A DNA stretch of 64,000 nt from Candidatus Obscuribacterales bacterium (lineage in GTDB: Bacteria; Cyanobacteriota; Vampirovibrionia; Obscuribacterales; Obscuribacteraceae): contig CBDDIJ010000005.1 in the NCBI GenBank assembly GCA_965228855.1, forward strand, positions 672,001 to 736,000, in the 5' to 3' direction. Both the position numbers and the translations under genes were made by a program. Below, in pieces: positions 1 to 20,400 of the stretch. Below the pieces are notes generated by a model. It did no database searches, had not been told where the DNA came from, and saw nothing but the letters and a program-made list of their open reading frames with translations. Every line of letters starts with the position of its first letter. Position 1 is the stretch's first letter.

Positions 1-3000
1 TCAGGTTTGGTACAGAACCGCCCAGTCCATCGCTCAAGCCGCCACTGATGCTATCGTTCAATATAGATCCGAACGAAGTGAGAGTAATGCTGTTGCTTCC
101 TTCGACGCTGCCATCCAGGTCCAGAATGCCCGAGGTGGAGGTCAAGCTCACATCCGCACCAGAAATTGTGCCGGAACTGCTGAGGTCGCCAGTGCTCTCA
201 ACGGATGCAGTGGCAGACGCACTGCCGGTGAGGACATTCAGCGCACCGTTGTTCTCAACATATGCACTACCAGCTGCGGCTGAGAAAGTTAATGCTGACG
301 TGGCTAACTGGATAGGAGCGAGGCTAGAGCCGATACTTGTTGCAGAGTCAAGCACTACGGAAGGCGCGAGGATTGTTCCCACCGGTAAATCCGTAGCACT
401 AATGCTGGATGCACTGATTTCAACAAAGTCCGAACTGCTTACCGAGCCGGTAATTGAAACAGTTCCCGCAGCGACAAGCATTACAGGCTCGCCCGATACC
501 GTACCTGGTACCGTGATGTTGCCGGCGCTCTGCAAGGAGAACATACCCATGGCAGCTGAACCGCCGACCAGAGCTATATTCGCATTGTTGGAGATAACGT
601 TTACAAAACCTGTCGGCGCGTTGAGAGTTAGTGACTGTACGTTAGTAGAAACCAGTACTGGCGCGACATCTCCCACATTGCCGTTGGTAGAGGTGACGGA
701 CAGTGTAGGAGTAAAAACGGAATTTAGTTGATTAGCTGCTGTGAAACTCTCGTAGGCTGTCAACATCGCTGAAGATGACGCTACAGCCAGCGAAACTGTA
801 ATAGCACCGTTGGTGGATGAAGCGACCAGTGAAGCGACGTCCACATCTAATAGATGCAAGTCCCCTTCAGCCCTGATATCCAAAAGACCACCTTCCGCAA
901 TCGAAACTGTGGTGTTGCCTACGGCATCCAGGTAATCGGAACCAGTTACAAGCGACACAACGCTCGGCGACGATAGCTTAAGTCTGCCACTAACCGATCC
1001 GACATTGCTGGCAGACAACTGCACCTGTCCAGTTGCCGTCACGAGAGAGCCGGAATCAACTATGACATCACCGGTTGCAGAAAAGCGCGTGACGCGCGAG
1101 GTTATGCTTCCCCCGAACTGAATGTTGGCAGAAGAAGAAAGCCTGACGATGTCTGCAGTTATTTCAGCAGTCAGCGTGAGCCCAGTGGTTCCAAGCACTG
1201 AGAACGTCTGGAGCAGATTGGTTCCAGCAGAATTGATTCCTGTCAGGTTTACGCTGTTCGGATCGACTACATAAACCATTCCTGTCGGTGCATTCAACGT
1301 CAAGTTCACGGCATCGATATCAAGCTCATTACCGCTTGACCCAATCGAGCCATTCGTAGAGGTCAAATTGATTTGCGGCGCCGATAGAGCCGTTGGGCTT
1401 CCTAAGTTGACATCGCTAATATTATCGAAAGAGGTGAGGGAGATAGTGTCTGTCGCGGTTACCTGATTGACGAAAACACTACCAAGAGAAGACTCGATGG
1501 CGACATTGCGACCGCTGATTGGCTGGTAGGTGAAAACTGAAAGACTACCGGAGAGAGAGACGTCCCGCCCGGCGGTTACATCTTCGTTGATGAACAAATT
1601 GGCCGTCGTAGATGTAATTCGTACGTCGCGTCCAGCACTAAGAACTTTGTTGATGTAAATCGAATCAACCGAGTCCAAGATGATGTCACCGTTAGTGGCG
1701 GTTAATAGCTCATTAGCAAAGATGCTGTCGTTTGAGCTGATATTGATATTTCCTGCGGCAGTGATGTTGCCGTTCAAGAAAACACTATCTCCGGGAGTTG
1801 AGTTCGACTCTATAACAATGTTGCCGCCTGCATCAATTCGTCCGGCAAAAACCGAACCACCTGAAGTTTGCGCGGTGACGTTACCGCTAGCGCTAACATC
1901 CTGATTCAGAAAAATACTGCTACCAGCTAGAAGGCTTATGTTGCCTCCAGTAGTCGACAATGGAACATCGTTAATGGAGAGAGAGTTGGCGGAGTCAAAA
2001 ATTATATTGCGACCAGCGCTCACACCACTGCCGTCCGCAGTGAGGGAACCACCAGTAGTTGAATAGCTAAAATCAAGACCCGCGACACCCTGAATAAAGC
2101 TCGTAGAAATGGCACTATTCGTCAGAGTGACGCTACCTGCGGCACTAGCGTCGACAAAGGTAGCATTGATCGCAAGCGGTTGTCCAAGCGAGCCGATGCT
2201 ACCGTTAACGGAAGCGAGAGTGAGGTCAAATACTGTTGCGCCACTGCCGGCCAGACCACCAACAATACTGCCCGCGGTGATGCTGTTCAAAGACGTCAAT
2301 GAAATCGAGTCGGTTCCAGTCACCAGGCCGTTCAAACCGAGACTGCCATTGGTTGCTTGAAGAACAACATCGGTGGCTGAAATTGAGCCATCGCTCAGGA
2401 TGTTGTTGTTGGCCGTTACGCTAAAATCGAACAGCGCAGTACTGGTTCCAACGGTGACAGTATTGGGGTCGCTGAAATAAACGTTATTAGCTTGAAGAGT
2501 AACATGGTTTGCGTCCAGTAACAGAGGCGTCGCGCTTGTGCCGATGTCTCCTGCGGTGGACGTGATTTGAAGGTTCGGACTAGTTAGAACTCCAGTTATA
2601 GAGGAATTCAAAATGTTTCCAGCGGCGGTTAGCGATATAAAGTTCGAAGCAGTCAGGTTACTGGCGATGTTCAATGAACCGCTTGCGATAAACGACAGCT
2701 GATTTCCGCTCACACTGCTGGTAGTCGAAAGGTTGGCAGCGTTTACCTGGAGAGTGCCTGAAACAAACGAAGAGCCACCACCCATGGTGAGGTCCGTCGC
2801 ATCAACGATTGTCGCATTTCCGCTGAGTGCGTTAACCGTCAAATTCGTAGCTTCGACATTACCGACAATATCTCCGGTCTCCGATCGCAAGTTCACCTGC
2901 GGAGCGGTCACTGATGCTGGAATTACAGAAGTGATGCCAGTTTGAGCCCGTATGGTTGCGCTAGTCGTTGCCGTTATGATCTCGGACAATGTGACATTGC

Positions 3001-5431
3001 TTGTCAGCGAACGCAAATTGACGACATCAGCGGTGATCGTATTATCAGTAATAACAGCTCCGTTCGCTTGAAGATCGAAGATACCAGCGGCACTCCCATC
3101 AATGTTGGCGGCGCCAGTCACATTGATAAAGACAGAGCCATTCGAGGCGAATGCTCCAATATCCGGTCCGGTCAGATTCAGCCTGCCAGAGGCGGAGGAT
3201 CCAATATTGCCATTCATACTCGTTAGTACGAGGAAAGCCCCGGCACCGATTGTCGAACTGGCTGTATTGGTAATGTTTCCTTCTGCAAAGATGAGCACTG
3301 CGGCTGCAGAAATACCACTGCCGCCGGATTGATTAATGTTGCCAGTCGACGCAAGAACCAAAGATCCAGCGATATCTATGACACCGCTGTTAATCTGGAT
3401 GTTGCCACCAGTCGTAGGAGTTAGACTGTCGCCGACAAGTGTATTTCCTGAGGTAATTTGACCGCTTGCATCAAAGACGACGTTCGCGCCATTCGAGGAG
3501 ATCGGCTGCAGCGTGGAAATAGAGACTGAATTTAATAAGTTTGGCGAGTCAGCGTTGATGCCGCCTAACGTGATTGCGGTAGTGTTCTGAGCCCCGGCGA
3601 TGATCGTGATGTCGCCAGCATCACCTGTAACGGAACTGGCATTAATTAGGGTTCCACCCAGATTCACGCGTCCAGAATTAAAGTTCAAACCAGCGAACGC
3701 GGCAACGAGGATGTCACCTGCATTATCGCTCGCATTCAATCCGGCCGATGATATGGTCACGCCACTTCCGAGTAGAACACTGCCACCACCAGTAGAGGCA
3801 TTACCGGTCAGTGTAGTTCCGGAAAACGTGCCGCCCGGGAGAGTCGAACTGTTGGTGCCACCGGGCAGTTGCTCCGCTCCAGCTATGAGCGTAATGTTAT
3901 AACCCTGTCCCGCAGACGTTGCAGTGATAGTAACATTATTGGCGCTTGTGATGTTGCCACTGGCAATGATCGCCAGATCCTCAGCGACTGTAATATCGCC
4001 AGCAATGTTGATATTTCCGGCACTATTCTTGAAGGTCGGGTCACCCGTCAGACAAACTTGACCGATGTTCAGCTCAGCAGTAGCAGCTTGCACATGAGCT
4101 TCGGCACCTGTCTGATTGATGGTTCCAGTCAGTTCGTTAACTTCGACCCGAAGGACACCACCGCCGGCGTTCAAATTCAGCTCGCGGCTGAATAAATCCC
4201 CACCTGAGACGTTGGTGTTGAAAGGCTCTGAAAATGCTGCGTTACGAACGTTAATTGCGCCGTTCAGAGCGGAGATTGTCCCGCCGTCGTTATTGAGGTT
4301 TAAATCAGCTGTCGCCGCTCCATCGACATTCACATCGCCTTTAAGCGATTCGACACGACCACTGTTGACGATGGATGATGAACTCAGATTCACATCTCTG
4401 ACTGCGCTGACGTCAGATGCGTTAGTTAGATTGCCACCGGCTGTAAGTGTCAAGCTGCCACTGGATGTGATACTACCGTAGTTGCTGAGGTCCCCTTTAG
4501 CGTTTAAACCGAGATCAACGGCCCCACCTTTTCCACCAAGGTCGTTTCTCTGACCGTTGTTCAAAACAGTCGAGATAACACCGCCAGCCTGATTTGTGAT
4601 GTCATCGGCATAAATCGTACCGCCGCGAACAGACTTACTGCTGGATACTGCGTACACGAAGCCGTAGTTCGTCAGGTCGCCTTGCAATCTAAAGTCCGAA
4701 CCTTTTCCGAAATCCCCGTAGGTTGTGACGCCGACGGGCACGATCAGGTCAGAGGCTTTCATGACGTCATTATTAGCTGTGATGGAGCCCAGATCAACCT
4801 GACCACCAATAGAAGCACCCGTTGCGTCCAGCGTGACTTTCTGTCCGCCACCTGCAAGGACTTGCTTGACGGCTACGTATTCGGAAGCGGTCACTTGTTG
4901 ACCAGCTGAGATCGTTTTGACTTCGCCACCGACACTGATTTCAACTGAGTTGACGTTGCCAAAGAGCTTCTGCCCTAGAGTGATGTTTCTAACTGTCGAA
5001 GAAAGGTCAAGATTTACGCCATTCTTCAGTGAAACGAGATTGCCGTCAGAATTATTTTGCAAAGACTGGTTCACGACGCCGTTGTGACGCTCGAGTCGCT
5101 GAGTCCACCTGTCAGCACGATTCGATCCAAGCGAAGCACCGGTTGATTGCGTCGTATTTACGTTTCCGCTCAAAGAAGGAACTGCGAGGAAAGTCGATGG
5201 AGATGTTGCATTTCGAGCACCACCTGCGACACCAAACTCCTGGCGATACATACCGCGCAAAGTTTGCCTGTCAATGCCGGGATTCTGGTCTCGAAACTCC
5301 CTGAAGGTCGTTCGATCATGCTCAGGAGCAGCCTGGGCTGCCTGCATGGCTGATGCGGACAGGGAACCAATAATGACTGCCATCCACTGCTTAACAAACG
5401 ACTTGCGAACTCTGACTGCCTTCTTACTCAT
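1..5431 (-). CDS. Giant secreted beta-helix/hemagglutinin-like repeat protein, paralog of 5531-17788; 3' end runs off the window (>1810 aa)
   Basis: Absent from the ORF track because no stop lies in the window. Manual translation from ATG 5431 (AGGA upstream) gives MSKKAVRVRKSFVKQWMAVIIGSLSASAMQAAQA-APEHDRTTFREFRDQNPGIDRQTLRGMYRQEFG..., collinear with the neighbouring giant protein. Spot checks at about 4530, 2010, 750 and 30 are in the same open frame; it ends ...NDSISGGLSDGLGGSVPNL at the edge. Confidence 0.9.
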   Translation of the reverse strand, partial: MSKKAVRVRKSFVKQWMAVIIGSLSASAMQAAQAAPEHDRTTFREFRDQNPGIDRQTLRGMYRQEFGVAGGARNATSPSTFLAVPSLSGNVNTTQSTGASLGSNRADRWTQRLERHNGVVNQSLQNNSDGNLVSLKNGVNLDLSSTVRNITLGQKLFGNVNSVEISVGGEVKTISAGQQVTASEYVAVKQVLAGGGQKVTLDATGASIGGQVDLGSITANNDVMKASDLIVPVGVTTYGDFGKGSDFRLQGDLTNYGFVYAVSSSKSVRGGTIYADDITNQAGGVISTVLNNGQRNDLGGKGGAVDLGLNAKGDLSNYGSITSSGSLTLTAGGNLTNASDVSAVRDVNLSSSSIVNSGRVESLKGDVNVDGAATADLNLNNDGGTISALNGAINVRNAAFSEPFNTNVSGGDLFSRELNLNAGGGVLRVEVNELTGTINQTGAEAHVQAATAELNIGQVCLTGDPTFKNSAGNINIAGDITVAEDLAIIASGNITSANNVTITATSAGQGYNITLIAGAEQLPGGTNSSTLPGGTFSGTTLTGNASTGGGSVLLGSGVTISSAGLNASDNAGDILVAAFAGLNFNSGRVNLGGTLINASSVTGDAGDITIIAGAQNTTAITLGGINADSPNLLNSVSISTLQPISSNGANVVFDASGQITSGNTLVGDSLTPTTGGNIQINSGVIDIAGSLVLASTGNINQSGGSGISAAAVLIFAEGNITNTASSTIGAGAFLVLTSMNGNIGSSASGRLNLTGPDIGAFASNGSVFINVTGAANIDGSAAGIFDLQANGAVITDNTITADVVNLRSLTSNVTLSEIITATTSATIRAQTGITSVIPASVTAPQVNLRSETGDIVGNVEATNLTVNALSGNATIVDATDLTMGGGSSFVSGTLQVNAANLSTTSSVSGNQLSFIASGSLNIASNLTASNFISLTAAGNILNSSITGVLTSPNLQITSTAGDIGTSATPLLLDANHVTLQANNVYFSDPNTVTVGTSTALFDFSVTANNNILSDGSISATDVVLQATNGSLGLNGLVTGTDSISLTSLNSITAGSIVGGLAGSGATVFDLTLASVNGSIGSLGQPLAINATFVDASAAGSVTLTNSAISTSFIQGVAGLDFSYSTTGGSLTADGSGVSAGRNIIFDSANSLSINDVPLSTTGGNISLLAGSSIFLNQDVSASGNVTAQTSGGSVFAGRIDAGGNIVIESNSTPGDSVFLNGNITAAGNINISSNDSIFANELLTATNGDIILDSVDSIYINKVLSAGRDVRITSTTANLFINEDVTAGRDVSLSGSLSVFTYQPISGRNVAIESSLGSVFVNQVTATDTISLTSFDNISDVNLGSPTALSAPQINLTSTNGSIGSSGNELDIDAVNLTLNAPTGMVYVVDPNSVNLTGINSAGTNLLQTFSVLGTTGLTLTAEITADIVRLSSSANIQFGGSITSRVTRFSATGDVIVDSGSLVTATGQVQLSASNVGSVSGRLKLSSPSVVSLVTGSDYLDAVGNTTVSIAEGGLLDIRAEGDLHLLDVDVASLVASSTNGAITVSLAVASSSAMLTAYESFTAANQLNSVFTPTLSVTSTNGNVGDVAPVLVSTNVQSLTLNAPTGFVNVISNNANIALVGGSAAMGMFSLQSAGNITVPGTVSGEPVMLVAAGTVSITGSVSSSDFVEISASSISATDLPVGTILAPSVVLDSATSIGSSLAPIQLATSALTFSAAAGSAYVENNGALNVLTGSASATASVESTGDLSSSGTISGADVSLTSTSGILDLDGSVEGSNSITLTSFGSILNDSISGGLSDGLGGSVPNL

Positions 5432-5469
5432 TATGTTAGGTCCTGCAAAATAAATTGAAGTGAGAAACG

Positions 5470-5527
5470 AAAGAAACGCGAGACGCCCCCGAGCACGGAA
5501 CCTCAGTTCTCATGATCGGGAGCGTTG
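5470..5527 (-). terminator. Long GC-rich stem-loop followed by a U-rich tract between the two giant genes (terminator/attenuator or mRNA stabiliser)
   Basis: Minus strand ACGCTCCCGATCATGAGAAC-TGAG-GTTCCGTGCTCGGGGGCGT pairs extensively, followed by CTCGCGTTTCTTTCGTTTCT, directly after the TAA of the upstream gene. Confidence 0.6.
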
Positions 5528-5530
5528 CAA

Positions 5531-8500
5531 TTACCAGTTGAGCGCAACTGTTTTCGGCTTGGTGTGGAATTCGTAAGCGGTTCCGTTCTGACCGAGTTGC
5601 AACACGATTGCAGAGGTTTTAACTACCTTCGCTGCGACTTTCTGAGCTTCTGGATGCTTGGAGCTTAGCAACGCCTTGAGCGGTTTCAGCACTTGAATTG
5701 CGCCTGGCAGCGAGAATTCAGTAGTGAAGGCTTTGCGCCCGTTGCCCATGTCGTGATGACCGACGTTTCTGTGCATCATCGCTTCGATTGCATTAACTTC
5801 AGCGAACTGAGCGCATTTATCGTTGGTCACGGTCACGTGTCTTCCCGGAGCCAATGGGATGCTTCTGCCGCCGACTTCAACTTCAACGCTTCTCTTATGA
5901 TGATCGTTTACATCGTAAACCGACAGGTGAGTTGCATCAGCGACAACCAGGGCGATCGCGCCGGCGGCCAACTTGACCGTTCCCTTTGGTGAAACGACAG
6001 TTGTATCCTTCGATGCAACGAAAAGAACACTGCCATGGTCCATCGTCACGCAATCCGAATGTGGCCTTGTTGAAACACCGTTTTCGCCAGCGGAGAAACC
6101 AAGTTCCATGTCGGTACAGAGTTGAACATCGAAGGTCATCGAACTTGGCGCGTTGGTCGTCATGTACGAATTATCCGCAGTCGTGCTTACCGCTCCAGCC
6201 AATCCGTTGGTTGAAGCCGTCGCCAGATTAGTGGCGGAGTCGCTTGAATTCAACAGATTGCTGCTTCCAAGCGAGTTGGTGGCGGTCATGTTGTTGAGGG
6301 AAACCAACTGCAATGCAGCGGTTGAAGCGACCGGTGCTGAGCTAATCAGCTCGGAAGCGAAAGCACTATCCGTGGTGGCGGCTGGAGAAGATGTGGTGGC
6401 ATCAGCTCCGTGCATTACGCCTTTGCCATAGCTGATGTAGACAGGAGTTCCCACCGGCACAGGCGGGTCGGCTGTCACGGTGACGCCGCCTCGAATCTCA
6501 ATGAGGTTGTTTCTCAAGTTATTGCTGACCAGAATATCAGCACCCTGCGCCGTGAATATGTTCTGAGGAGATAGACCCTTAGCCCGTCTTCCCGAGAAAC
6601 TGACAGTACCGCCGTTTTCGACAACAGTCGTGAACTTCGGTGTTTTGTTACCGCCCGGGGGAAGGATGCTCGGTCCGATCGCAATGGTGACGTCGCCCAG
6701 ACCGGCGATTTTGGCATTCGTGACAATGGTTGAACCGGTTCCAAGAATGAGCTTGGCTTTCTTATCACTGGTCGTATTGATCACGTTGATGCTGCTGAAG
6801 GCCGTCAGTGTGGTGTTGTCACCGATGGTGAGGAACCCGCCTGAACCCAGGACAGACAGGTCACCGTTGACCGAGGTCAGATCGCCCGTCACGGTGAGTG
6901 CGCCTGCTGATGCGAGGCTCAAATCGTTGCCGGCCGTTGATTCTGCGAAGTTCACGCCCACTGTTGATGCGCTGTTGATAAACACACTTCCGGTTGCAGC
7001 GAGTGCGTTACCGGAAATAGTGCCGATTCCGGCTGCAACATTGAATGGATTATTTTCATCGACGCCGATCGAACCGGTCACGGAGGTGAGCTTCAACGAA
7101 GGCGTCGTGAGCGTACCTGTGAGGTCGGCGTTTACGATGTTGTTGTTAGCAGTCAGAGTCAGGGTAGTGGTACCGGTCAGTGCACCGGTGAGAGCGAACT
7201 TGCCGCCGGTAGCGAGCACTGTATTTGCTGAGCTGGCAGTTCCAGCTCCGGTCAGATCACCGACAGTGAAGATATCCAGCGTGTTGGTGGCGATGCTGTT
7301 GCCGAGAACGACTGCACCGGCCAAGGTGTTGTTGACGAAGGCATTCTGCGCTGCTGCCACACGCATGTTGTTAGCGACGATCGTGAACCTGTTTGCAGAG
7401 TCGGTTCCAATCGCGCCAGCAGAGGAGAGAACGGCATTATTCGTTATGACCGACCCACCGAGCGTCGTTGTCATACCGCCTGAGGCAGTCAACGTCGCAG
7501 AGTTTGTCGCGGTAATATCGTTTGTAATACCGATCGTTCCAGCGGTGGCTGTAAGCGTGAGATCGTTGACGAGGAAGTCTGCGCTGGTTGTTATATTTCC
7601 AGCCGTCGAGTTCACCGTCAAGGCAGTTACGGCTTGCGAGCCGATCGTGATGTCGTTAGCTTCGTTGATGGTTAGCGTTCCAGCCGACAACGTCGTCAGT
7701 GACGCAACTGAAGTATTCAACGTTACCGGTCCGCTTCCGAATGAAACGCTCAATGCGTTACCTGAAACCGTTCCAGCCGTCTGCGTAATCGCTCCGTTCG
7801 AGTTGAAATCGACGGAGTTGTTACCGGTCAGAGCTGCACCGAGTTGGATGTTGCCCGTGGCCGAGATCAAGTCTACGTCGTTTGCTGTCGTGGCAGCGTT
7901 GATGACGATCGCATTGCCGGATGCGCTATTACCTGTCAATGTCAATTGATCGACATTGACGCCAGTGCCTTGAACGGTGATTGTTCCTCCTGCGTTGATG
8001 ACGACATCTTGTCCTACGCCGGCGACACCATTGAGGATGATGCCGTCAGCTTCGTTTAACAAAGTTATAGCGCCGCCGCCAGAGGTGTTCAACTCACCGA
8101 CGCTGGTGCTCGCGAATGTCGCGGTACCAACTCCCGTGTTGACAATCAATTTGTTCGAAGCAATCGAGGTGGCGACTCGCTGAGAAATATCGTCGCCGGC
8201 TCCGAGAGCTCCAAGAATGGTCACATCGCGACCTGGCGCGGTTATGTTACCTACAAGCACATCGCCATTGGTGGCAACACCGGTCGTGAATGAACCACCG
8301 GTTACAGCACCGTTCTGAACAAATATGGTGCCACTGATGACCGGTTTGGCGACCGCTATGTTTATGTTGCCGCTAGTGATACCACCCGTCGTATCGATGT
8401 CTCCAGTGAATACGCCTCCAGCTCCGATAATGCGAACCTGACCGCTGGTAGCGGTGCCGGATGTGTCAATGTTTCCGAGGTTCACGATACCAGCATTAGT

Positions 8501-11500
8501 GATTCCATTGTTCGCGATCGCAGTGACAGCACCTCCGTTGCCGTTGTTGCCAACGGTTAGAATGTTGACGGTACTCAGGTTGATGTTACCGCCCTGGGTG
8601 CTGAATCCGGTAATGGTGTAGGTATCAGCATTCTGGGTCTGACCAGGTGTTGTCGGAGTGAAGGTGACACCCGCCATCAAAGTCAAGTTGCCACCGTTTG
8701 TGGTGCCGGTCAAATCGATCAGAGTTGCTCCGGAAGTGTTGATGTTGCCGGACGCGATGATCGCGAATGGTCCACCGTTGAATATGATGTTACCGCTCAA
8801 ATTAACGTCGCCGGATCCATTGTTATTAGCGATGGTACCAGCGTCCGCGCAGTTGACGACGAGCGGATTACCAGAAAGTGAACCGGTAAGAATCAAGTCG
8901 CAGGCGTTGACAGTCAATTGATTTTGACCGACAACCGAAACACCGCCGTTAACCGTGAAGAAATTGTTGATACCGCCGAGGTCTTTGACAGTGAGGATGG
9001 CTTCGCCATTGCCGCCGAACGTGGTGTTGCCGGCGAAGGTCATGTCGCCTTCAAGCGTGTCAAAGGTGGTTCCGTTTTCAGAGTTGAAGAAACCGCCAGT
9101 ACCACTGATTGTGAGATTGCTTCCGGAGCCGGCTGTCGCGACCTCAATCGTATCGAAATCGAAAGTATTCGAATGAATGATGTTGCTCGTGGTCAGCTTC
9201 AAGTGCCCGGTACCATCGATGTCATCGAGGGTTTGAATTGTTCCGGTTAGCGCAGCTACTGAGAAGTTGTTGTTGCCGGTAGAGCCATCCAGGGAGATGG
9301 TGTTGGTTCCGGTGTATGTGATATTCACGTCGCCACCGACGGCTTCAGCGATTACCGTTATCGCGCCGGCACCCGTTCCAACGACACGAATAGGCAGTGC
9401 ACCAGTTCCGATACCACCGGCTGCGGAGAACATCGTCAACAGAGGAGTCGTTATTAAAGTTCCCGCTGTCTGCGTGATGCTTCCGTTTCCTGTCGAAGTG
9501 TCGAACGTGACAGCACCGGTCGCAGTGATGTTGTTGGAGATGTCGATATTTCCGGTGTCAGACGTGAGGACCAATGCCGTCAGGCTCAGGTCAGCGCCTG
9601 TCGTGATACTTCCGTTGGCGGAGTTTACATCTAAAACGTCAACGACTTGAGACAACAATTGAATGTTGTCGGCTTCAAGGACCGTGAGATCCGTTGCATC
9701 ACCGACAGTCGTTAGTTGGGCTACGTTGGTGGAAAGTGTCGCAGAAGCAGCGCCAAAGTCGACGGTCAGTAAACCACCGGACACAATGCCGGCGGTCTGT
9801 GTCAGCTCATCGCCTGCATTTAGCGAAACACCGGTAGCTCCCGCTACATCAGCGTTCAGAATTATATCGTCCCCTGCCGTGAGCGCTACGATCGGAGCGG
9901 TTACGTTCGAATTCACGGTGATATCTCCACCGGACAGAATTCCGAAAGCCACACCTGCAGCCGATGAACCACCGCCGAGCGTAATATTGTTGGCGTCCTC
10001 CACGAACACCGTTCCGGTAGCAGCATTTGCTCTGAGCACGTCAGCGTCGACATTGAGGAAGTCGAGGATGTCGCCTATGTTGCCGTTGGTCGAGGTCAGG
10101 TCAAGGAAGGCTGCCGGAATACCGATGCCGGAATTCAGACCGCCTGAAACGTTTGCGTCGAGAATACTGGCAGAGCTTGTCAGTTTTATCGAAGTTGTTC
10201 CAGTGACTGCGCCGTCAAGGTCGAAAGCTCCGCCTGTAGCAGTTAAATCTACATCCACGGCAGTGATGGTACCAGCTGCGGTGCTGTTTAGATTGATAGG
10301 AGCAACTGCGGTGAAACTGGTTCCAGCAGAGGATGCGCCGTTAAAAGTCATGGAATCGGTTGTGTCGCTCAGAGAGACGAAACCGAAAGCATTAGCGATT
10401 ACGTTGGTCAGATTCAACGAACTCAACGAAATATCGCCGGCAGTCGATTCGAAGTTGAAGTTGTCAGCGGTCAAACCGCCAACGACGTTTGCATCCAGAA
10501 TCGAATCGTTGGACGATAGCGCGATGGTCACCGCTTCCAGAGGAGCATTGACGTTTACTGAACCGCCAGTCGCTGTGAGTGACAGAGTGGTTCCAGCCGT
10601 GATTGCACCAGTGACGGTTACGCTGCCAGCGGCTGTGACAGTGAACGAAATTCCAGAAAGTGAACTGTCGGCACCGATCGAAATGTCGTTCGCATCCGCA
10701 AGGTTGACATAACCGTTGGCGGCGAGCGCACTAACCTGTGCAAAGTCGATGCTCGTGATGTCGATGTTGTTGGCGCTCGAAGCCAGGTTGATTTGAGGAG
10801 AGCTCAACCCGCCGACTACAGCAGCATTGTCTATAGTGCCGTTAGACGTAAGATTGATTTCGGCAAGACCCTGGACAGAACCAGCCAGAGTGAAGCTTCC
10901 ACCTAGAGCATTCAAGAACACAGTCGTACCGGAGATGCCGGCAGACGAAGTGAGGTCGGTGTTGGCAGTCAACTCAAAAGTGTCCTGCGCAGCCGAAGCA
11001 ACGTTGACATTAATGTTGTCGTCTCCAAGGTGACCGTCATCGGTGATGAAGACGCTGCCGGCCGGTGTATTGGCACCCAGATTGACGGCATCGATCTTCA
11101 GAGTATCGAGACCAGCTCCGATGTCACCGTTATCCGAAGTCAACACCAGATTGGCTACGGCGGCGGTACCGCCAGCTCCTGTCAAACCACCGGCGATGTT
11201 GGCGTTCAAAATGCTATCGAAGGAACGCAATGTGATTGTATCGACGGCTCTCACTTCGCCGTTCAACAGGAAGTCGCCATTTACCGCACGCAGGGTGACA
11301 TCATCTCCGGCACTGATCAGCCCGGAGCTGTGCAAGTTACCCGTAGCTACGATATCGATGCTGGCAGTCGCGGATGCGCTGTTAACGTCGAGGTCATCAG
11401 CATCTGCCACAAAGACACCACCGGCAGTGGCGGTCGCGATGAGGTTGTCGGTGTTGATGTCCAGACGATCTGCCGAGCCCGCTCCAATTTGTTGTGCAGT

Positions 11501-14500
11501 CAATATCAATGTCGGCGCATTCAATCCGCCGGCAATATTGGCGTCAATAATCAGGTTAGTGGTCGCTGTCAGAGCGATGCTGCTTGTGCCGGTTACCGCG
11601 CCATTGAGGGTGAAGAAGCCACCCGACGTCGTCAAATTGACCGCATTGGCGTCGATCGTACCAGCCACTGTGCTGGTGATGTTTCCAGTGGCGTTGAGGA
11701 GGAACACATCGAAGGCACCGGATGCACCATTGACGTTGATACCGCCCGCCGTATCACTGATAAACACGTTGGCGATTGGTGCGTTCGCGGTCAAGTTGAC
11801 AGCATCAATGCTCAGCGCCCCACCGACACCGAGAGCGCCGATTTCACCATTGTTTACCAGCAGGTTGAGCTGGTTGACGGCCCCACCTGAAGTGAACAAA
11901 CCACCTGCGATGCTTGAATTGAGAATTGAATCATTAGAAACGAGGTTGATCGTTTGCGCGTCGACAAAAGCATCAAGCACGAGCTTGCCACCAACTGCAG
12001 TCAGTGAAGCCGTTGTTCCGGCAGTCACCGTTCCACTGCTGGTCAGATCGACAGGAGCGCTTGCCGTGAAGAACGTTCCAGCGCTGCTTGCGCCGGGACC
12101 AAAGTTCATATTGCCCGTGGTATCAACCAGCGTGACGGAACCTGTCGCGTTCGCCACCACATTCGTGAAATCAACAGTCGTAATGTTGATGTCGTTCAAG
12201 CTGCTGAGATTGATATTCGGAGCGAACAATCCACCAGAAATTGACGCATCGCTTATTGTTGCGCCGGAGAACAAATTGATCGTGAGCGCAGTCACTGGTC
12301 CGTCAAGGACAAAGCTACCGGTCGACGTTGCATCTACGTCAAATGTGATTGTGCCACCCGCAAAGACAGCAGAATTGCTGGTCAAGTTACCGTTGGCAAT
12401 AGTTACGGTGATATCCCCGCCCGCTGATGTGTCGTCGACACCAAAATTGAAGCCATTCGCATCAGACAGGATGATGTCCCCGGAGGCGATTGCCGAAAGA
12501 TTAACGAAGTCAATCGTTGAGAGATTGATCGAATTCGAGAAACTGTTCAGATTAATCTGTGGGGCAGACACTCCACCAGTCACGCTGGCGTTCACAATCG
12601 AGTCGTCGGATCTCAGGGATACTGATGTTGTACCAGTGACCGAACCTGCAAGAGTCAAACCGCCACCAGTAGCCTCAAGGGCAACTACATCCGCGGCGAT
12701 CGCTCCGGAGCTGGAGAGATCATCGAAAGCAACAATGTCGATTGTCGATAAAGCAGTTGCACTGACAATGTTCGTCGAGAAGATATCGCGAACAAACGCA
12801 GAGCCGGCGGTAGCCGAAAGCGTGAGATTGTCGGAGTCGACGGTGAAGCGAGACGAATCGTCGGTTCCGATACTTCCCGTATTAGCATCGAGGGTAATGG
12901 TAGGTGCGATAACAGCACTTCCAACAACGTTTGTGATGTTGGTTTCCGCCAATAAATTGGCGGCGGTCGTCGCCGTCACATCAGAGCCGAGGTTGATTGC
13001 CCCAAGTTCAGAGGTGAGATTCACGGTGTCAGCCGAAATCGTGCCGGTGCTCGTGATATCTCCCGCAGTGGCAACGATGTTGAACGAGTTAAGCGCACTG
13101 CTTCCACCTGCATTATCGGCAAGATTGACGCCGTTTGCAGCCCGCACGAATACATCGCCGAAGCCGGCGTTAGCGGTGAGGTCAGTCACATCAACGTTCA
13201 GATAGTCGCCAGATGCACCGATGTCACCGCTGTACGACGTCAGATTGAGAGCCGGCGTCGACAAGCCACCAACTAGATTGGCGTTAAGAATATCGTCATC
13301 AGAAGCTATGCTGACGGCTGTGACTGCAGTGACCAGGTTATTCAACTGAACGAATGCAGAACCGGACGAAAGGTTGACTTCATCACCCGATAGAGGACCA
13401 TTGACAGTGACACCATTCTCGCCGTCCAGGCTGATGTCATCAGTCGTCGTGATGTTCTGAGTCGTCAACTGATTGTCCGCTTGCATAAACACCGGACCGC
13501 TGGCGTTCACGTTGCCGCCGGAATTGATGTCATTACCGGCGTAGATGTCTATAGATGTTCCAGAAGTGATGTCCGAAACGATAACATCGTTGTTGGCGAA
13601 GACAAACACGTCCGTGCCGGTGTTGAGTGCGCCGTTAACAGTTGCATCATTGCCTGCCACGATACTGATGGATGACGTCGCGGATGTGACGTCGCCGTTT
13701 GTGGTGATATCACTGCCATCGATACTGATCAAATCAACTGCGTTCAATACATCGAGCGTATCAACGTCTCCACCGGTGGAGCTGATGAACAGACCGAATC
13801 CGGAGTTAACAGAGCTGTTGACACTGATGTCACCGACTGCGGAGATGACCACATCCCCTGTATTCGTCGTTATGGCGCCGAGTGTGGTGAGTGTCGATTG
13901 AGAATCGATAGAGACGAGGTTACCGGCGGAAAGTGTATTTGAAGTCGTCACACCGTTGCCGCTGATATCGATGTCGACGCCGGCGGAAACCAATCCGGTT
14001 ATGTTGGCAGTTCCGACGTTCGCAGCCAGAATCACAGAGCCGGAGGTAGCGGAAACAGTTCCGAGAGTTTGAATCGAGTCTCCGGAAATCGTGGCGTCAC
14101 CACCGGCGGTGATGCCCTGGAACGTTGTAATGTTGCCGCCGGTCGCAAAGAGTGTGACATCACCAGCCGCGTTGACAGTGTCGAAAGTATTTATCGCGCC
14201 GTTCGCGGTCGCAAAAACATCACCATTAGCGGAAACCGGTCCACTCGTGGAGATCGAGCCGTTAGAGTCCAGATCGATATTATTGTCAGCCGTCAACGCT
14301 GCACTCGCCGTTAGAGTGGTGTTGGCTGATAGAGCAATATTGCCGCCAGCTGTGATGTCGTTCTGAACATCAATCGAATCGGCAGTGATATCGGTCGAGT
14401 TGCCGCTGTCGATTGTTCCGACATTGCTGAATGCTCCATCGGCAACAAGACCGATGTTGAACTGGGCAAACGAATTACCCAAAACGGTGACGTCGTTCAA

Positions 14501-17500
14501 ATCGTGGATGTAAGCAGAGCCGTTGGTGGCCGTGAAGGTCAAATTGTCAGCATCGATATCGAGGTCGTTCGAAACCGAACCAATATCTCCTGCTGTGGAG
14601 GTCAACTCAAGGTTGGCAACTGCGCCGCCGAAGCCGTTGCTCAAGCCACCCGAGATGCTGGTGTTGAGAATTGAGTTGGCGGATGTAAGCTTGATGCTGT
14701 TGGTACCAGCCACAGCTCCATCGAGATCAAAACCGCCTGCAGTGGCAGTGAGATTCACATCAGTAGCGAACACAGAGCCGGTGCTAGTCAGGTTGTTCGC
14801 AGCCGTGACTTCAAATGTCGAGAGGGCAGACGATGCGCCTGGTCCGAGGTTAACTGAGTTCGGATCGGAGAACCAGACGTTGCCATTTGCGGCGTTCAAC
14901 GTGACGCTCTGCGCATCAAGGTTCAACGGAAGCGCCGAATTCGTTCCTATATTTGCGAGCAACGAAGTCAGATTGATTCGAGGCGAAACCAGAGATGCTC
15001 CGAGGTCGACAGTTTGAATACTTTGACCGGCCGTGAGATTGATCGAAGTCAATCCTGTGATGACAGTACCGGCACCCAGAGTGAAGACACCGTTAGTGGC
15101 GGTCAAGTCAACAACGTTTGCAGTGATGTTGCTTGTGTTACTGATACCGAAATCAGCGGTTAATTTCAATGTTCCGAAAACGTTCGAGGCACCGCCGCCG
15201 AGATTGACAGAGTTCAAATCCGTCAGTGTTGCGCTGCCGTTTGGAGCAGTGATGCGGAGGTCGTCGACGTCAATGATGAGCGAGCTGACCGAGCCGATGT
15301 TGGCTAGGTCAGATTGAACGGAAAGAACGGGTGATGTTATCTGAGCCGTACCTTCGACATTGAAGCTGGCGCGCAGGTCGACTCCACTCACACCGGTGAT
15401 GGTGTTGAGAATATTGATGTTACCGCCTGACGAGCGCAGAGTGACGGTATCACCCGCGATGGCGCCCGAGTTACTCAGGGTGCCCTGAGCTAAAATGTTG
15501 AAGTCGCCTTGAACCGTGGCAGCAAGGAGGTTGACCTCGTCGATGTCCTGGACGTAAACCGAACCCAGCGGAGCGTCTACGTAGAGGTTATTTGCATCCA
15601 CGCGCACTCTTTGAGAGACCGAACCGATATCGGTGTTCTGTGATACCAGATTGACTGTGGGTGCCGAGACGAGAGAACCGACTCCGGCGCCGATGATGCC
15701 GTTGACAGAGGTAAAGTTGATTGTTCCGAAATTACTCGTCACGGAAGAGCCGGTCAGAGTCGTGATGGTGTCGGCATCAACGAACACATCTACGTTGGTC
15801 AGCGAGTTGCGCACGAAGGTGACGTTTGCGTCAACTCCGACTCCTGGTCCTGCGATCAAGCCGTTTCCTGACGCTATGGTTCCGTTGAGGTTGTAAACGA
15901 TGTTGCCACCGTTGGACGATATAGGCTGAGTTGTCGTGATGTTGATTTGGCCGGTGGAGGTGTTGCCACCGGTCGTGTTTATAAATCCGACGTTGACTGC
16001 ATTGCCATTTTGCAAACCAGCGATGATCGTGACATTACCATTGGCATCACCAGCCGTTCTGCCGCCGGTATTGATCGTCGTCGTTCCACCACCGATGTTG
16101 ACACGTCCGGAGCCGACGGTTCCGCCTTCAAATGCAGCGAGCAATACGTTGCCGCCCGCTCCGGCTGCGCCAGTTGAACGAGACGAGATCGTGACGTTAT
16201 TTCCGAGGAGGATGCTACCACCGGTAGCGGAAGCGAGCCCGGTAAGCGTTGTCCCTTGTGCGGTTCCTCCGCCGGGCAGAGTGGTGGAGTTCGTTCCAGC
16301 TACAAGTTGATCGGCGCCAGCTACGATTGTTATCGGGTAACCGGTCGCACCATCGCCAGCCGTGATAGTGATGTTGTTGACGCTGGATACGTTTCCACTG
16401 GCAATGATCGCCAGTTGTTCATTGACCGTAATGTTGCCGGCAATTGTGATATTCCCGCTATCATTTTTGAATGTTGGGTCGCCGGTCAGGCAAACTTCGC
16501 CAAGAACCAGCTCATCGGTTGAGGCGGTGACATGGGCTTCGGATCCCGTTTGATTCAAAACACCTGTCAGTTCGCCGACATGCGTTTGCATCACGCCGTT
16601 ACCAGCGTTCAAGTTCAATTCCTTCGAGAAGAAATCACCACCGGTAACGTTGGTGTTGAATGCGCCGGCATATTCTGAGTTTCTTACATTGATAGCGTTT
16701 GCAGCGGTGAAGGTACCGCCACCTGCATTGACATTCAACTCGGCTGTCGTGGGACCATCAATATTGATATCGCCCTTGAGCGATGTGACGGAGCCGGAAT
16801 TTAAAATGTTTGGTGCGTTGAGATTTACGTCACGCTTAGCGCTGACTTCAGACGCGTTTGTCAGGGTGTCGCCCGCGCTGAGTGTCAAATTGCCTTTGGA
16901 CGTTATGGTGCCATAGTTCGAGAGGTTGCCGCTAGCAAACAAGCCGAGGTCTGTTTCGGAGGATATAAGTGCTCCGGCTTGGTTGGTGATATCGTCGGCG
17001 CGAATTGCTCCACCATTTTTGTGGCTCGAATAGGTGTGAACAGTTCCGGCGTTAGTTAAGTCGCCCAAAAGTTTGAAATCTGAGCGTTTGCTGAAGTCAC
17101 CATATGTGGTGACGTTGACAGGAACAACGAGGTCGGATGCTCTCATCACGTCATTATTTGAGGTGATGCTGCCGAGATCGACTTCACCACCGATCGCCGA
17201 ACCGGAATTGTCGATTGTGATTTTCTGAGAGTTGCCAGAAAGGATTTGTTTAACGGCGATATACTCCGCCGCGCTCACTTGCGAACCAGCCTGAACTGTT
17301 TTGGTTTCGCCGCCGACGTTGATTTCAACTGCGGAAACCTTGCCGAACAGATTATTACCGAGCGTGATGTTGCGCGTCGTGGAAGTGAGGTCGAGACTCA
17401 CACCACCGCGTATATTGACAAGATTACTATCGACTTGCTGAATCGACTGATTGATAACACCTTGACGTTCGAGACGTTTTTCAATCCGCCTTGTAGTACC

Positions 17501-17788
17501 GGTGACTCGGACAGCATCGCTTATCGAGCTGACAGCCGGCATCGGGATAGAAGGAATCGAGATAACGGCTGGATCGGCGCTCCGGCCGCCGCCACCAAAT
17601 TCGGTGCGATACATTCTGCGCAATGCGCTGCGGTCGATACCGGCATTCGCATCGCGAAATTCGCGGAAGCTAGGTCTATCGTCTGCGGCTGCAGCTGAGT
17701 GAGCCGCCACGAGAAACAGGGAAGCGCTGATTACGCCAGCCCATCTTCTGCTGAACGAATTTCTTACACGTACGCTCTTCTTACTCAT
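5531..17788 (-). CDS. Giant (about 4085 aa) secreted beta-helix/filamentous-hemagglutinin-like repeat protein with a distinct C-terminal domain
   Basis: The track's 4150 aa ORF most likely starts at ATG 17788 (GGGGGA SD, MSKKSVRVRN matching the paralog start). Sec-type signal ending AHSAAA; G/T/S/A/N/D-rich degenerate repeats; S/T/A-rich linker; roughly 200 aa globular C-terminus. Confidence 0.9.
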   Translation of the reverse strand: MSKKSVRVRNSFSRRWAGVISASLFLVAAHSAAAADDRPSFREFRDANAGIDRSALRRMYRTEFGGGGRSADPAVISIPSIPMPAVSSISDAVRVTGTTRRIEKRLERQGVINQSIQQVDSNLVNIRGGVSLDLTSTTRNITLGNNLFGKVSAVEINVGGETKTVQAGSQVSAAEYIAVKQILSGNSQKITIDNSGSAIGGEVDLGSITSNNDVMRASDLVVPVNVTTYGDFSKRSDFKLLGDLTNAGTVHTYSSHKNGGAIRADDITNQAGALISSETDLGLFASGNLSNYGTITSKGNLTLSAGDTLTNASEVSAKRDVNLNAPNILNSGSVTSLKGDINIDGPTTAELNVNAGGGTFTAANAINVRNSEYAGAFNTNVTGGDFFSKELNLNAGNGVMQTHVGELTGVLNQTGSEAHVTASTDELVLGEVCLTGDPTFKNDSGNITIAGNITVNEQLAIIASGNVSSVNNITITAGDGATGYPITIVAGADQLVAGTNSTTLPGGGTAQGTTLTGLASATGGSILLGNNVTISSRSTGAAGAGGNVLLAAFEGGTVGSGRVNIGGGTTTINTGGRTAGDANGNVTIIAGLQNGNAVNVGFINTTGGNTSTGQINITTTQPISSNGGNIVYNLNGTIASGNGLIAGPGVGVDANVTFVRNSLTNVDVFVDADTITTLTGSSVTSNFGTINFTSVNGIIGAGVGSLVSAPTVNLVSQNTDIGSVSQRVRVDANNLYVDAPLGSVYVQDIDEVNLLAATVQGDFNILAQGTLSNSGAIAGDTVTLRSSGGNINILNTITGVSGVDLRASFNVEGTAQITSPVLSVQSDLANIGSVSSLIIDVDDLRITAPNGSATLTDLNSVNLGGGASNVFGTLKLTADFGISNTSNITANVVDLTATNGVFTLGAGTVITGLTSINLTAGQSIQTVDLGASLVSPRINLTSLLANIGTNSALPLNLDAQSVTLNAANGNVWFSDPNSVNLGPGASSALSTFEVTAANNLTSTGSVFATDVNLTATAGGFDLDGAVAGTNSIKLTSANSILNTSISGGLSNGFGGAVANLELTSTAGDIGSVSNDLDIDADNLTFTATNGSAYIHDLNDVTVLGNSFAQFNIGLVADGAFSNVGTIDSGNSTDITADSIDVQNDITAGGNIALSANTTLTASAALTADNNIDLDSNGSISTSGPVSANGDVFATANGAINTFDTVNAAGDVTLFATGGNITTFQGITAGGDATISGDSIQTLGTVSATSGSVILAANVGTANITGLVSAGVDIDISGNGVTTSNTLSAGNLVSIDSQSTLTTLGAITTNTGDVVISAVGDISVNSSVNSGFGLFISSTGGDVDTLDVLNAVDLISIDGSDITTNGDVTSATSSISIVAGNDATVNGALNTGTDVFVFANNDVIVSDITSGTSIDIYAGNDINSGGNVNASGPVFMQADNQLTTQNITTTDDISLDGENGVTVNGPLSGDEVNLSSGSAFVQLNNLVTAVTAVSIASDDDILNANLVGGLSTPALNLTSYSGDIGASGDYLNVDVTDLTANAGFGDVFVRAANGVNLADNAGGSSALNSFNIVATAGDITSTGTISADTVNLTSELGAINLGSDVTATTAANLLAETNITNVVGSAVIAPTITLDANTGSIGTDDSSRFTVDSDNLTLSATAGSAFVRDIFSTNIVSATALSTIDIVAFDDLSSSGAIAADVVALEATGGGLTLAGSVTGTTSVSLRSDDSIVNASVTGGVSAPQINLNSFSNSINLSTIDFVNLSAIASGDIILSDANGFNFGVDDTSAGGDITVTIANGNLTSNSAVFAGGTITFDVDATSTGSFVLDGPVTALTINLFSGATISDASISGGLFAPNINLSSLNDINITTVDFTNVVANATGSVTLVDTTGNMNFGPGASSAGTFFTASAPVDLTSSGTVTAGTTASLTAVGGKLVLDAFVDAQTINLVSNDSILNSSIAGGLFTSGGAVNQLNLLVNNGEIGALGVGGALSIDAVNLTANAPIANVFISDTAGGINVNGASGAFDVFLLNATGNITSTVAGTIDANAVNLTTSGGFFTLNGAVTGTSSIALTATTNLIIDANIAGGLNAPTLILTAQQIGAGSADRLDINTDNLIATATAGGVFVADADDLDVNSASATASIDIVATGNLHSSGLISAGDDVTLRAVNGDFLLNGEVRAVDTITLRSFDSILNANIAGGLTGAGGTAAVANLVLTSDNGDIGAGLDTLKIDAVNLGANTPAGSVFITDDGHLGDDNINVNVASAAQDTFELTANTDLTSSAGISGTTVFLNALGGSFTLAGSVQGLAEINLTSNGTIDNAAVVGGLSSPQINLASSANNIDITSIDFAQVSALAANGYVNLADANDISIGADSSLSGISFTVTAAGSVTVTGAITAGTTLSLTATGGSVNVNAPLEAVTIALSSNDSILDANVVGGLTADNFNFESTAGDISLSSLNLTNVIANAFGFVSLSDTTDSMTFNGASSAGTSFTAVAPINLNSTAAGTITAVDVDLTATGGAFDLDGAVTGTTSIKLTSSASILDANVSGGLNSGIGIPAAFLDLTSTNGNIGDILDFLNVDADVLRANAATGTVFVEDANNITLGGGSSAAGVAFGILSGGDITVNSNVTAPIVALTAGDDIILNADVAGATGVSLNAGDELTQTAGIVSGGLLTVDFGAASATLSTNVAQLTTVGDATDLTVLEADNIQLLSQVVDVLDVNSANGSITTGADLSLTALVLTSDTGNIDISNNITATGAVTFDTSTGNGSITQTAGTLITTPLLTMFSAAGGIGTGALPIRVVGTGAGAITVIAEAVGGDVNITYTGTNTISLDGSTGNNNFSVAALTGTIQTLDDIDGTGHLKLTTSNIIHSNTFDFDTIEVATAGSGSNLTISGTGGFFNSENGTTFDTLEGDMTFAGNTTFGGNGEAILTVKDLGGINNFFTVNGGVSVVGQNQLTVNACDLILTGSLSGNPLVVNCADAGTIANNNGSGDVNLSGNIIFNGGPFAIIASGNINTSGATLIDLTGTTNGGNLTLMAGVTFTPTTPGQTQNADTYTITGFSTQGGNINLSTVNILTVGNNGNGGAVTAIANNGITNAGIVNLGNIDTSGTATSGQVRIIGAGGVFTGDIDTTGGITSGNINIAVAKPVISGTIFVQNGAVTGGSFTTGVATNGDVLVGNITAPGRDVTILGALGAGDDISQRVATSIASNKLIVNTGVGTATFASTSVGELNTSGGGAITLLNEADGIILNGVAGVGQDVVINAGGTITVQGTGVNVDQLTLTGNSASGNAIVINAATTANDVDLISATGNIQLGAALTGNNSVDFNSNGAITQTAGTVSGNALSVSFGSGPVTLNTSVASLTTLSAGTLTINEANDITIGSQAVTALTVNSTAGNITTSADFLVNDLTLTATAGTIGITNDITATNSATLTASGGMTTTLGGSVITNNAVLSSAGAIGTDSANRFTIVANNMRVAAAQNAFVNNTLAGAVVLGNSIATNTLDIFTVGDLTGAGTASSANTVLATGGKFALTGALTGTTTLTLTANNNIVNADLTGTLTTPSLKLTSVTGSIGVDENNPFNVAAGIGTISGNALAATGSVFINSASTVGVNFAESTAGNDLSLASAGALTVTGDLTSVNGDLSVLGSGGFLTIGDNTTLTAFSSINVINTTSDKKAKLILGTGSTIVTNAKIAGLGDVTIAIGPSILPPGGNKTPKFTTVVENGGTVSFSGRRAKGLSPQNIFTAQGADILVSNNLRNNLIEIRGGVTVTADPPVPVGTPVYISYGKGVMHGADATTSSPAATTDSAFASELISSAPVASTAALQLVSLNNMTATNSLGSSNLLNSSDSATNLATASTNGLAGAVSTTADNSYMTTNAPSSMTFDVQLCTDMELGFSAGENGVSTRPHSDCVTMDHGSVLFVASKDTTVVSPKGTVKLAAGAIALVVADATHLSVYDVNDHHKRSVEVEVGGRSIPLAPGRHVTVTNDKCAQFAEVNAIEAMMHRNVGHHDMGNGRKAFTTEFSLPGAIQVLKPLKALLSSKHPEAQKVAAKVVKTSAIVLQLGQNGTAYEFHTKPKTVALNW

Positions 17789-19452: not shown

Positions 19453-20400
19453 TTACTTCGCACCAACAGTGGGAACTTGGGTCTCGAACCATGCAATAGT
19501 TTGCTTTAAACCATCCAGCAGCTCGGTTTGGGGATTCCAACCAAGTACTTCCCTGGCTCTAGTTATATCAGGAAGGCGACGGCGAGGATCATCGATCGGG
19601 AGTTCTTTGAAGACGATTTCACTGCGAGTTTTGGTTAGCTCTTTGATTATTTTCGCGATTTCGGAAACCGTTTTTTCCTGCGGATTTCCGAGGTTGATGG
19701 GCTGGTGACAGTCGGAGTTCATCGTGCGAACGATTCCATCTACCAGATCGGAAACGTACTGAAAGCTGCGCGTTTGTGAGCCGTCACCATATACGGTGAG
19801 TGGTTCTTTCTCCAAGGCCTGCCGTATGAAATTCGAAATCACTCTGCCATCGTCAAGGCGCAATCGAGGACCGTAGCAATTGAAGATACGAATGATACGC
19901 GTATCGAGACCGTGCATTTTGTGATATGCCATCGTGATTGCCTCGGCAAAGCGCTTAGCTTCATCATATACACCGCGCGGACCGATCGGGTTAACATTGC
20001 CCCAGTACGCTTCGGTTTGCGGATGAACCTCGGGATCCCCGTAGACTTCACTAGTACTGGCAAGCAGATACTTTGCGTTTTTCGTCGACGCCAGTCCGAG
20101 TGTGTTGTGAGTACCTAACGAATTGACCTTCAATGTTTGAATCGGCAATTCCAGATAATCGACTGGTGACGCTGGCGAGGCAAGGTGGACGACAAAGTCG
20201 ATATCACCTTTCACGTAAATATAATTCGACACATCGTGGTGGATGAATTCAAACTTGCTATTGCTCGTGTGTTGCTGAATGTTCTCGAATTTTCCGGTGA
20301 TCAGGTTATCCATGGCAATCACATAATTGCCTTCGGACATAAGTCGATCCACTAGATGGGAGCCGATGAAACCAGCCGCGCCAGTAACTAAAATTCTCAA
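19453..20400 (-). CDS. uxs: UDP-glucuronic acid decarboxylase (UDP-xylose synthase), extended SDR family
   Basis: GAAGFIG Rossmann motif, [46 protein letters not shown]; 4-bp overlap with ugd. Confidence 0.9.

Follow-up and report, generated by a model that had tools for sequence, protein, structure and literature searches.

Giant predicted beta-helix proteins of Obscuribacterales are linked in their genomes to an unannotated candidate outer-membrane barrel and to Skp

Single-component translocons of the outer membrane are known from several secretion systems. In two-partner secretion (type Vb; FhaB/FhaC, HMW1/HMW1B, EtpA/EtpB, HxuA/HxuB) the TpsB barrel is 16-stranded and has two POTRAs, and type Va barrels are 12-stranded and act in cis (PMC6555100). 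The secreted TpsA proteins bear NPNGI and NPNL motifs, and in Salmonella the free-standing barrel ZirT exports ZirS, in trans as well (PMC2270342). Cargo of the type XI secretion system (T11SS) is Sec-dependent and has a common C-terminal 8-stranded barrel (10.1101/2024.09.26.615229), and Skp is needed for export by its translocon Slam (PMC9090332). Here we analysed 64,000 nt of a Candidatus Obscuribacterales bacterium (positions 672,001 to 736,000 of contig CBDDIJ010000005.1, assembly GCA_965228855.1; hereafter the window), whose left end falls within a tandem trio of giant genes, A, B and C. The trio is part of a genuine family of giant predicted beta-helix proteins that is order-wide and unannotated and has a strong genomic link to an unannotated predicted barrel, X, and to Skp. 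At a probability of roughly 60%, we propose that the giant fibres are exported across the inner membrane by Sec, reach the surface via X and Skp, and act as long adhesive fibres.

A first-pass annotation of the window had described a tandem pair of co-oriented paralogs with Sec-type signal peptides, collinear N-terminal regions and long G/T/S/A/N/D-rich repeats. Genes A and B proved real, but the pair is a trio: gene B, complete in the assembly, starts at 5431 on the minus strand after a 99-nt gap behind gene A, and gene C (3878 aa) lies 95 nt past gene B, left of the window. Another genome of the genus (G168) also has the trio, seen as three tail domains spaced at about 11.7 kb, so it is not an assembly artefact. 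The window contains the following features of genes A and B:

5531..17788, minus strand: gene A, 4085 aa, ATG at 17788; predicted giant fibre protein of beta-helix type, first in the tandem trio
17684..17788, minus strand: A, predicted Sec signal peptide (about aa 1-35; heuristic)
17597..17677, minus strand: A, aa 38-64 at the mature N-terminus, a short, charged helical motif of FREFR..NPGIDR-type
16943..17413, minus strand: A, conserved N-terminal module (aa 126-282; common to 45 paralogs)
6719..16942, minus strand: A, beta-helix-like body, period about 20 aa, degenerate internal blocks (from sequence; rough length 88 nm)
6455..6718, minus strand: A, conserved end-of-helix segment (aa 3691-3778)
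6176..6454, minus strand: A, Ser/Thr/Ala-rich linker
5534..6175, minus strand: A, C-terminal domain (aa 3872-4085), predicted FecR-type beta-sandwich plus helices
1..5431, minus strand: gene B, first 1810 of 3883 aa inside the window, remainder leftward
4559..5029, minus strand: B, conserved N-terminal module (aa 135-291; profile)

The rest of the first-pass description held. Over the first 520 aa of A, B is 60% and C 64% identical to it, over its last 330 aa the values are 47% and 49%, and both proteins carry the same N-terminal module and tail as A. Residues G/T/S/A/N/V/L/I/D make up about 87% of protein A, whose repeats are degenerate: a lag of about 20 residues exceeds the maximum of the shuffles, and blocks within the protein, each about 110-120 aa, share 30-53% identity. 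By a heuristic check, the N-termini of all three proteins are signal-like, with a basic n-region (charge +6), one hydrophobic stretch and an Ala-rich end. NPNG and NPxG are absent from A, B and C, there is no RTX array (GGxGxD count 0, 0 and 1), and neither flank of the trio holds a transporter gene; left of the window, beyond gene C, we found neither tpsB nor a type I system but a molybdopterin dehydrogenase set on the opposite strand. The signal-like N-termini, the near absence of GGxGxD and the lack of a transporter beside the trio set the locus apart from type I/RTX secretion. Pfam gave no match for the whole of A or the window part of B, NCBIfam none for A, B, C or five homologs, and an Rfam scan of the window returned 0 matches. 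The named homologs are Candidatus Obscuribacterales or Melainabacteria. Some of them bear the NCBI label 'S-layer family protein', which we did not adopt; NCBIfam reproduced it for 0 of 8 proteins.

The genome (8.2 Mb, 95% complete) encodes 45 open reading frames (ORFs) with the N-terminal module, 43 found by profile plus two giants of 7537 and 9530 aa, as well as 30 copies of the tail domain. Both modules occur together in 26 ORFs, 19 have the N-terminal module only and 4 the tail only; these 49 family genes total 112455 aa, or 4.1% of the genome. They are mostly solitary, and clustering of their neighbours gave no recurring transporter. A search for upstream motifs yielded weak k-mers only, in 7-8 of the 45 genes (uncorrected). 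Across genomes, the N-module profile retrieved 1347 representatives at 50% identity. The module was present in 23 of 35 genomes of the order and in 0 of 115 other genomes of the class, the tail in 70 of 80 genomes of the order (up to 40 copies per genome) and in 0 of 150 other genomes of the phylum, and family frames reach 14400 and 14113 aa (G106:C12 and G061:C1). The family suggested by the first-pass annotation is no local pair; it is order-wide and highly expanded.

With Pfam we scanned 23 paralogs and A over the whole sequence, B in part and the remaining paralogs in the N-region or tail; the 23 paralogs scanned whole showed no catalytic or toxin family. The tail is conserved across its 30 copies rather than polymorphic, and the 99- and 95-nt gaps of the trio are too small for any ORF of at least 100 aa. 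Because of these three findings the family does not qualify as toxins of the contact-dependent inhibition (CdiA) type.

Structure prediction of the termini gave two different folds. The AF2 model of A aa 110-520 is a right-handed beta-helix (pLDDT 88) capped by the N-module, and TpsA secretion domains rank 1-4 in structural comparison; a Foldseek search with the N-region model returned nothing at E<=0.001, although TpsA structures topped the list. Beyond aa 520 the helix of A is predicted from sequence. Several tail-less paralogs terminate exactly at the equivalent of the end-of-helix segment. The short N-terminal motif occurs in 21 family members, including A, B and C, and in one other ORF among the 14191 of the genome. 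As for the tail, which had been noted to lack a barrel-like end, its model matches FecR-type domains only and is a soluble sandwich plus helices, not an autotransporter barrel. The match spans about half of the domain at a root-mean-square deviation of about 4 A, and among 30 tails just one is matched by Pfam FecR (E 0.03). Searching PDB sequences with profiles of the tail, the N-region and X gave nothing credible. There was no Pfam match of the tails to the C-terminal domain family of type IX secretion, whose Por/Spr machinery genes were not searched for.

The FecR fold raises a signalling function, in which the fibre would sense contact and the periplasmic tail would relay it via a barrel partner. 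Like the FecR/PupR domain (PF04773; PDB 4m0h, 6ovm), the tail has a predicted periplasmic FecR fold. Unlike it, the tail ends a giant secreted protein, adds three C-terminal helices and has neither a membrane nor a cytoplasmic anti-sigma part (no membrane helix was found after the signal in A or B). Since, in addition, no TonB-dependent receptor (PF00593) was found in the genome (controls match in 3 of 14) and the resemblance to FecR is partial, we regard such signalling as very improbable.

Two side observations concern the ends of family proteins. A 344-aa ORF (G000:C3:2865355-2866389, L036) consists of end-of-helix segment, linker and tail, has neither signal peptide nor N-module, and looks like what is left of a longer fibre gene. 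In a sub-group of paralogs of 1650-1770 aa (G000 C3:695188, C3:1724387, C3:1729659, C3:3341293, C5:1436397, C2:2433988), glycine-rich low-complexity repeats form the end in place of the FecR-fold tail; seven paralogs hold 5-12 GGxGxD matches and are probably mostly this sub-group.

We then turn to two-partner secretion, which the fibres resemble in their Sec-type signal, very long beta-helix, N-region aligning best with TpsA secretion domains, and a separate barrel gene that is often adjacent. The TPS family (PF05860) was found in 0 of 80 genomes of the order versus 16 of 41 phylum genomes as positive control, NPNG in 0 of 45 family N-regions versus NPxG in 25 of 25 cyanobacterial TPS domains, and hhalign probabilities of 0.3-0.7% between N-module and TPS domain give no sequence kinship. 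A ShlB/TpsB search gave weak matches (E 1e-5 to 1e-3) in 11 of the 80 genomes, and the six that were fetched are BamA orthologs, 58-65% identical to BamA; in the positive control 40 of 61 phylum genomes matched, many at E<1e-25. For the window's own genome, the ShlB and TPS searches ran without a positive control, and the phylum-wide controls were added. This genome has a single Omp85, with three POTRAs, and no second Omp85 or POTRA protein was found in it.

That these are ordinary TpsA proteins whose TpsB was missed through incomplete assemblies or divergence is an explanation favoured by the TPS-like fold, by a body resembling filamentous haemagglutinin (FHA; Fil_haemagg matches weakly in 18 of 45 N-regions, best E 1.2e-6) and by sources that label homologs 'filamentous hemagglutinin'. 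It is largely refuted by the searches above, in which none of 80 genomes, several of them near-closed, gave a TpsB-level match, and by the missing NPNG and second Omp85 in a 95%-complete genome. Moreover, the fibres have a conserved FecR-fold tail, and their adjacent barrel is neither Omp85-like nor equipped with POTRAs. A confident TPS-domain or autotransporter match, or a cognate tpsB or T1SS just left of the window, had been set beforehand as the finding to count against the first-pass proposal of an uncharacterised route, and none of these turned up; TpsB was found neither in the genome nor in the order.

In relatives with few copies, a fibre gene repeatedly adjoins the gene of a protein of about 390 aa, X, often together with Skp and TPR genes. 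X has a signal-like N-terminus and about 12 amphipathic strands (counted by eye and a rough scan). It matched nothing in Pfam or the PDB; in the ESM Atlas, clusters of BBP2_2 and SlipAM barrels come closest to it (0.94-0.95). We therefore predict X to be an unclassified outer-membrane beta-barrel without POTRA. A long tail follows its last strand, and a screen for barrels with a C-terminal aromatic residue missed it. X was found in 75 of 80 genomes of the order and in 0 of 200 other phylum genomes. A quick IQ-TREE search on 72 copies resolved three clades, X1, Xb and X2 (SH-aLRT 99, 98 and 100).

For adjacency we sampled 60 loci picked by barrel score or type plus the own genome's two, minus five discovery loci; a further 20 loci were left out of the counts, four of which (G192, G015, G094, G124) had been chosen in the knowledge of a nearby fibre gene. 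A family gene lay within 3 kb at 23 of 36 X1 loci (in 18 of 31 genomes; a generous gene density predicts 1.4), at 5 of 19 Xb loci (1.0 expected) and at 0 of 12 X2 loci (0.5 expected). Among the 23 X1-adjacent family genes 19 encode at least 500 aa. Skp lay within 3 kb at 9 X1, 3 Xb and 0 X2 loci. Many gaps between barrel and fibre gene are below 250 bp, and two-gene operons with a cargo of about 1100-1600 aa exist (L111, L127, L134). Xb-clade copies elsewhere adjoin full-length fibre genes (L135, L155), and six short, tail-dominated proteins adjoin a barrel gene. Across 80 genomes, a strong tail and an X1/Xb-level barrel were both present in 60 and both missing in 14, with 3 and 3 discordant (74 agree), where the cut-offs were set after the scores had been inspected and related genomes are not independent. 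Within six genera, tail and X1/Xb barrel are jointly present or absent. A complex prediction for the G039 barrel and its neighbour's tail scored 0.20 against a mark of 0.32 and was used neither way.

Several further observations concern the barrels. The X2 clade (L143-L153 and, in the own genome, G000:C3:1063607-1065070, L097:8607-10070, minus strand) never adjoins fibre genes (0/12), is present even in fibre-less genomes, and possibly has a separate housekeeping function. It often lies opposite a gene of 1000-1170 aa, which in the own genome is TPR-rich with a CHAT-like end (by eye). Some Xb barrels extend past the last strand into a low-complexity Pro/Ala/Ser-rich tail of 350-1000 aa that ends in a common short Pro-rich motif (L157:7415-10708, L158:6549-10661, L160:7675-9831). 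At L081:488-6275 (G082), a fibre gene beside X1 and Skp appears split into several frames, in a genome without a strong tail match. TpsB-type matches occur in 20 of 20 genomes of family f6 of the class; many cyanobacteria have them as well, the searched Obscuribacterales genomes do not. TpsB and the X/fibre pair thus have a near-complementary distribution, X and fibres being found where TpsB was not.

From the genomic associations we infer a pathway of five steps. The fibres would first be exported by Sec, as the heuristic signal-peptide check suggests. Skp would then hold the chain unfolded in the periplasm, which is suggested by gene adjacency and the analogy with Slam. By analogy with TpsB and autotransporters, X (about 12 strands, no POTRA) may thread the chain, with beta-helix folding on the outside driving export. 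The FecR-fold tail would fold in the periplasm and dock on X or jam in it; a dock or stopper for X is the likely function of this domain. As a consequence, tethering would be expected for the 26 paralogs with a tail, which include A, B and C, and release for the 19 without one. Finally, fibres of about 85 nm in the case of A, B and C may bind surfaces or other cells, adhesion being suggested because the 23 paralogs scanned whole showed no catalytic or toxin family and because the tail, instead of being polymorphic, is conserved. In the window's own genome, which has Xb (contig C2) and X2 only, the single Xb would serve all dispersed paralogs in trans.

How Xb sits in this genome bears on a different proposal, in which a general route (one of the three secretins or a TolC-MacAB-type pump that takes up cargo from the periplasm) exports the fibres, and X, co-regulated with them, would serve as a porin or envelope factor whose job is related but separate. 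In its favour, the genome encodes about 10 TolC-like genes besides 3 secretins, a TolC-HlyD-ABC operon is headed by Xb here and in the genus, and one TolC gene lies 1.6 kb from a paralog. But no secretin was found within 79 kb of any family gene in this genome, 1 of 10 TolC genes within 3 kb of a family gene is about chance level, and no transporter recurs beside the 49 family genes. X1, on the other hand, repeatedly lies 0-600 bp from a fibre gene in differing gene contexts, and X1/Xb are missing where fibres are missing. We consider a general route distinctly unlikely.

The chief rival assigns X to anchoring. BamA, its POTRAs reading the TPS-like N-region, or a BamA-X hybrid as in autotransporters, would export the fibre, and X would then hold the tail. 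This too is unlikely: X also adjoins Skp and genes that show only the N-module as far as they are in view, hhalign gives a probability below 1% for kinship in sequence between the N-module and TPS domains, and we know of no precedent for BamA exporting a free soluble passenger.

Several points weigh against export through X. Every link is genomic. The best structural matches of the N-region are TPS domains, which are read by POTRAs, and it is BamA that has POTRAs; the strand count of X was made by eye and rough scan. As 19 of 45 paralogs are tail-less, the tail cannot be the sole export signal. No family gene lay within 3 kb at 13 of 36 X1 loci, some of them at contig ends, and the co-occurrence carries the reservations given above on kinship and on cut-offs chosen with the scores known. 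The strongly linked X1 clade is missing from the own genome and, by best-hit scores and fetched loci, from its genus. The nearest family gene on the contig of Xb is 132 kb away. Of 7 other genomes of the genus, 6 have a TolC gene behind Xb, and in the remaining one the contig breaks off. Since Xb heads the TolC operon in the genus, it may serve that pump instead. The interpretation of the first-pass annotation is supported overall and its observation confirmed; for the uncharacterised route it suggested there is now a concrete candidate, barrel X with Skp, but the predicted fold of the N-region is closest to that of TpsA secretion domains, and export, anchoring and adhesion are all proposed functions.

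Two observations nevertheless connect the own genome's set to the fibres. At 1.2 kb from the paralog of 7537 aa there is a Skp-like gene, one of two that were found. And divergent from Xb lies the gene of a 236-aa protein with a signal-like N-terminus (G000:C2:1342785-1343495, L096:6785-7495, plus strand) that is built, for the most part, from the short N-terminal helical motif of the family in three copies. It is the only non-family ORF with this motif mentioned above, and it is also present in 3 of 7 other genomes of the genus.

With type XI secretion, the fibres and X have in common an outer-membrane barrel (predicted in the case of X) beside Sec-dependent cargo (here at 23 of 36 X1 loci, not at the window locus) and a C-terminal domain shared among cargo proteins (10.1101/2024.09.26.615229). 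Skp and TPR genes stand beside X, and Slam is described as Skp-dependent (PMC9090332). A SlipAM-containing cluster is among the ESM Atlas look-alikes of X (0.94). However, the Slam family PF04575 (DUF560) matches 0 of 30 X sequences at E<=1, and none was found in 151 genomes, a search without positive control. X has no fused TPR domain and about 12 strands, and the Slam barrel has 14. The fibres are beta-helices of 900 to >14000 aa with a FecR fold at the C-terminus, where type XI cargo has an 8-stranded TbpB-type barrel. Fibres and X resemble both two-partner and type XI secretion, but fail defining tests of the former and the cargo test of the latter.

ZirTS offers the parallel of a free-standing compact barrel that exports a separate Sec-dependent protein without a TPS domain, also in trans (PMC2270342). 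Unlike X, which has no such Pfam match, ZirT is intimin/invasin-like (a distinction made by Pfam and description), and the cargo here are giant beta-helices. Type Va autotransporters combine a beta-helix passenger with a 12-stranded barrel (PMC6555100, as above), and the fibres and X may be viewed as a split version; X, however, is a separate gene without Autotransporter Pfam match, and the fibre ends in a FecR-fold domain. We found no description of a fibre/barrel X system in the literature, where subscription papers and supplements could hold one. The accessible T11SS text mentions neither FecR nor haemagglutinin nor cyanobacteria (10.1101/2024.09.26.615229), and that of a preprint on giant genes mentions neither Melainabacteria nor Obscuribacter nor FecR (10.1101/2023.11.21.568195).

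It is an evenly balanced proposition that Obscuribacterales have replaced two-partner secretion by a system of their own, in which a POTRA-less, free-standing barrel (about 12 strands) works with Skp, the cargo are beta-helix fibres of 900 to >14000 aa, a FecR-fold tail is the periplasmic dock or stopper, and a single barrel is enough for dozens of dispersed cargo genes (about 4% of the genome). The fibres and X are best placed with single-barrel, Sec-dependent secretion, and that they form a secretion system in their own right we put at about even odds. If true, FHA-like giant fibres could be exported without an Omp85-family TpsB, via a barrel family absent from Pfam; the single-component outer-membrane translocons (TpsB, Slam, ZirT) would be extended, and the FecR fold would gain a role in export or anchoring. 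In a non-photosynthetic sister group of cyanobacteria that is widespread but little known, the fibres may be a dominant feature of the surface.

Some minor observations concern the neighbourhood of the trio and other envelope genes. On its upstream side, gene A is flanked by a Clp_N-domain gene and two nucleotide-sugar enzymes, namely an NAD-dependent epimerase/dehydratase and a UDP-glucose dehydrogenase-family gene (window 19453-21791, minus strand), co-oriented with gene A and 1.7 kb upstream of it. N-glycosylation sequons (NxS/T) are not enriched in the fibres (92 in A versus 87 in shuffles), and no link to glycosylation was shown by this count. Elsewhere in the genome, two tandem secretin genes (G000:C3:2780998-2785777) stand without obvious type II or type IV pilus neighbours, the third secretin (C3:70937-72961) adjoins an HlyD/ABC-type pair, and a simple pattern search gave one clear pilin-like ORF of at least 100 aa. 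Finally, ESM Atlas look-alikes of tail and X include Verrucomicrobiota clusters, and those of the tail also Bdellovibrionota, which provides a lead to a similar tail-barrel pairing outside Obscuribacterales.
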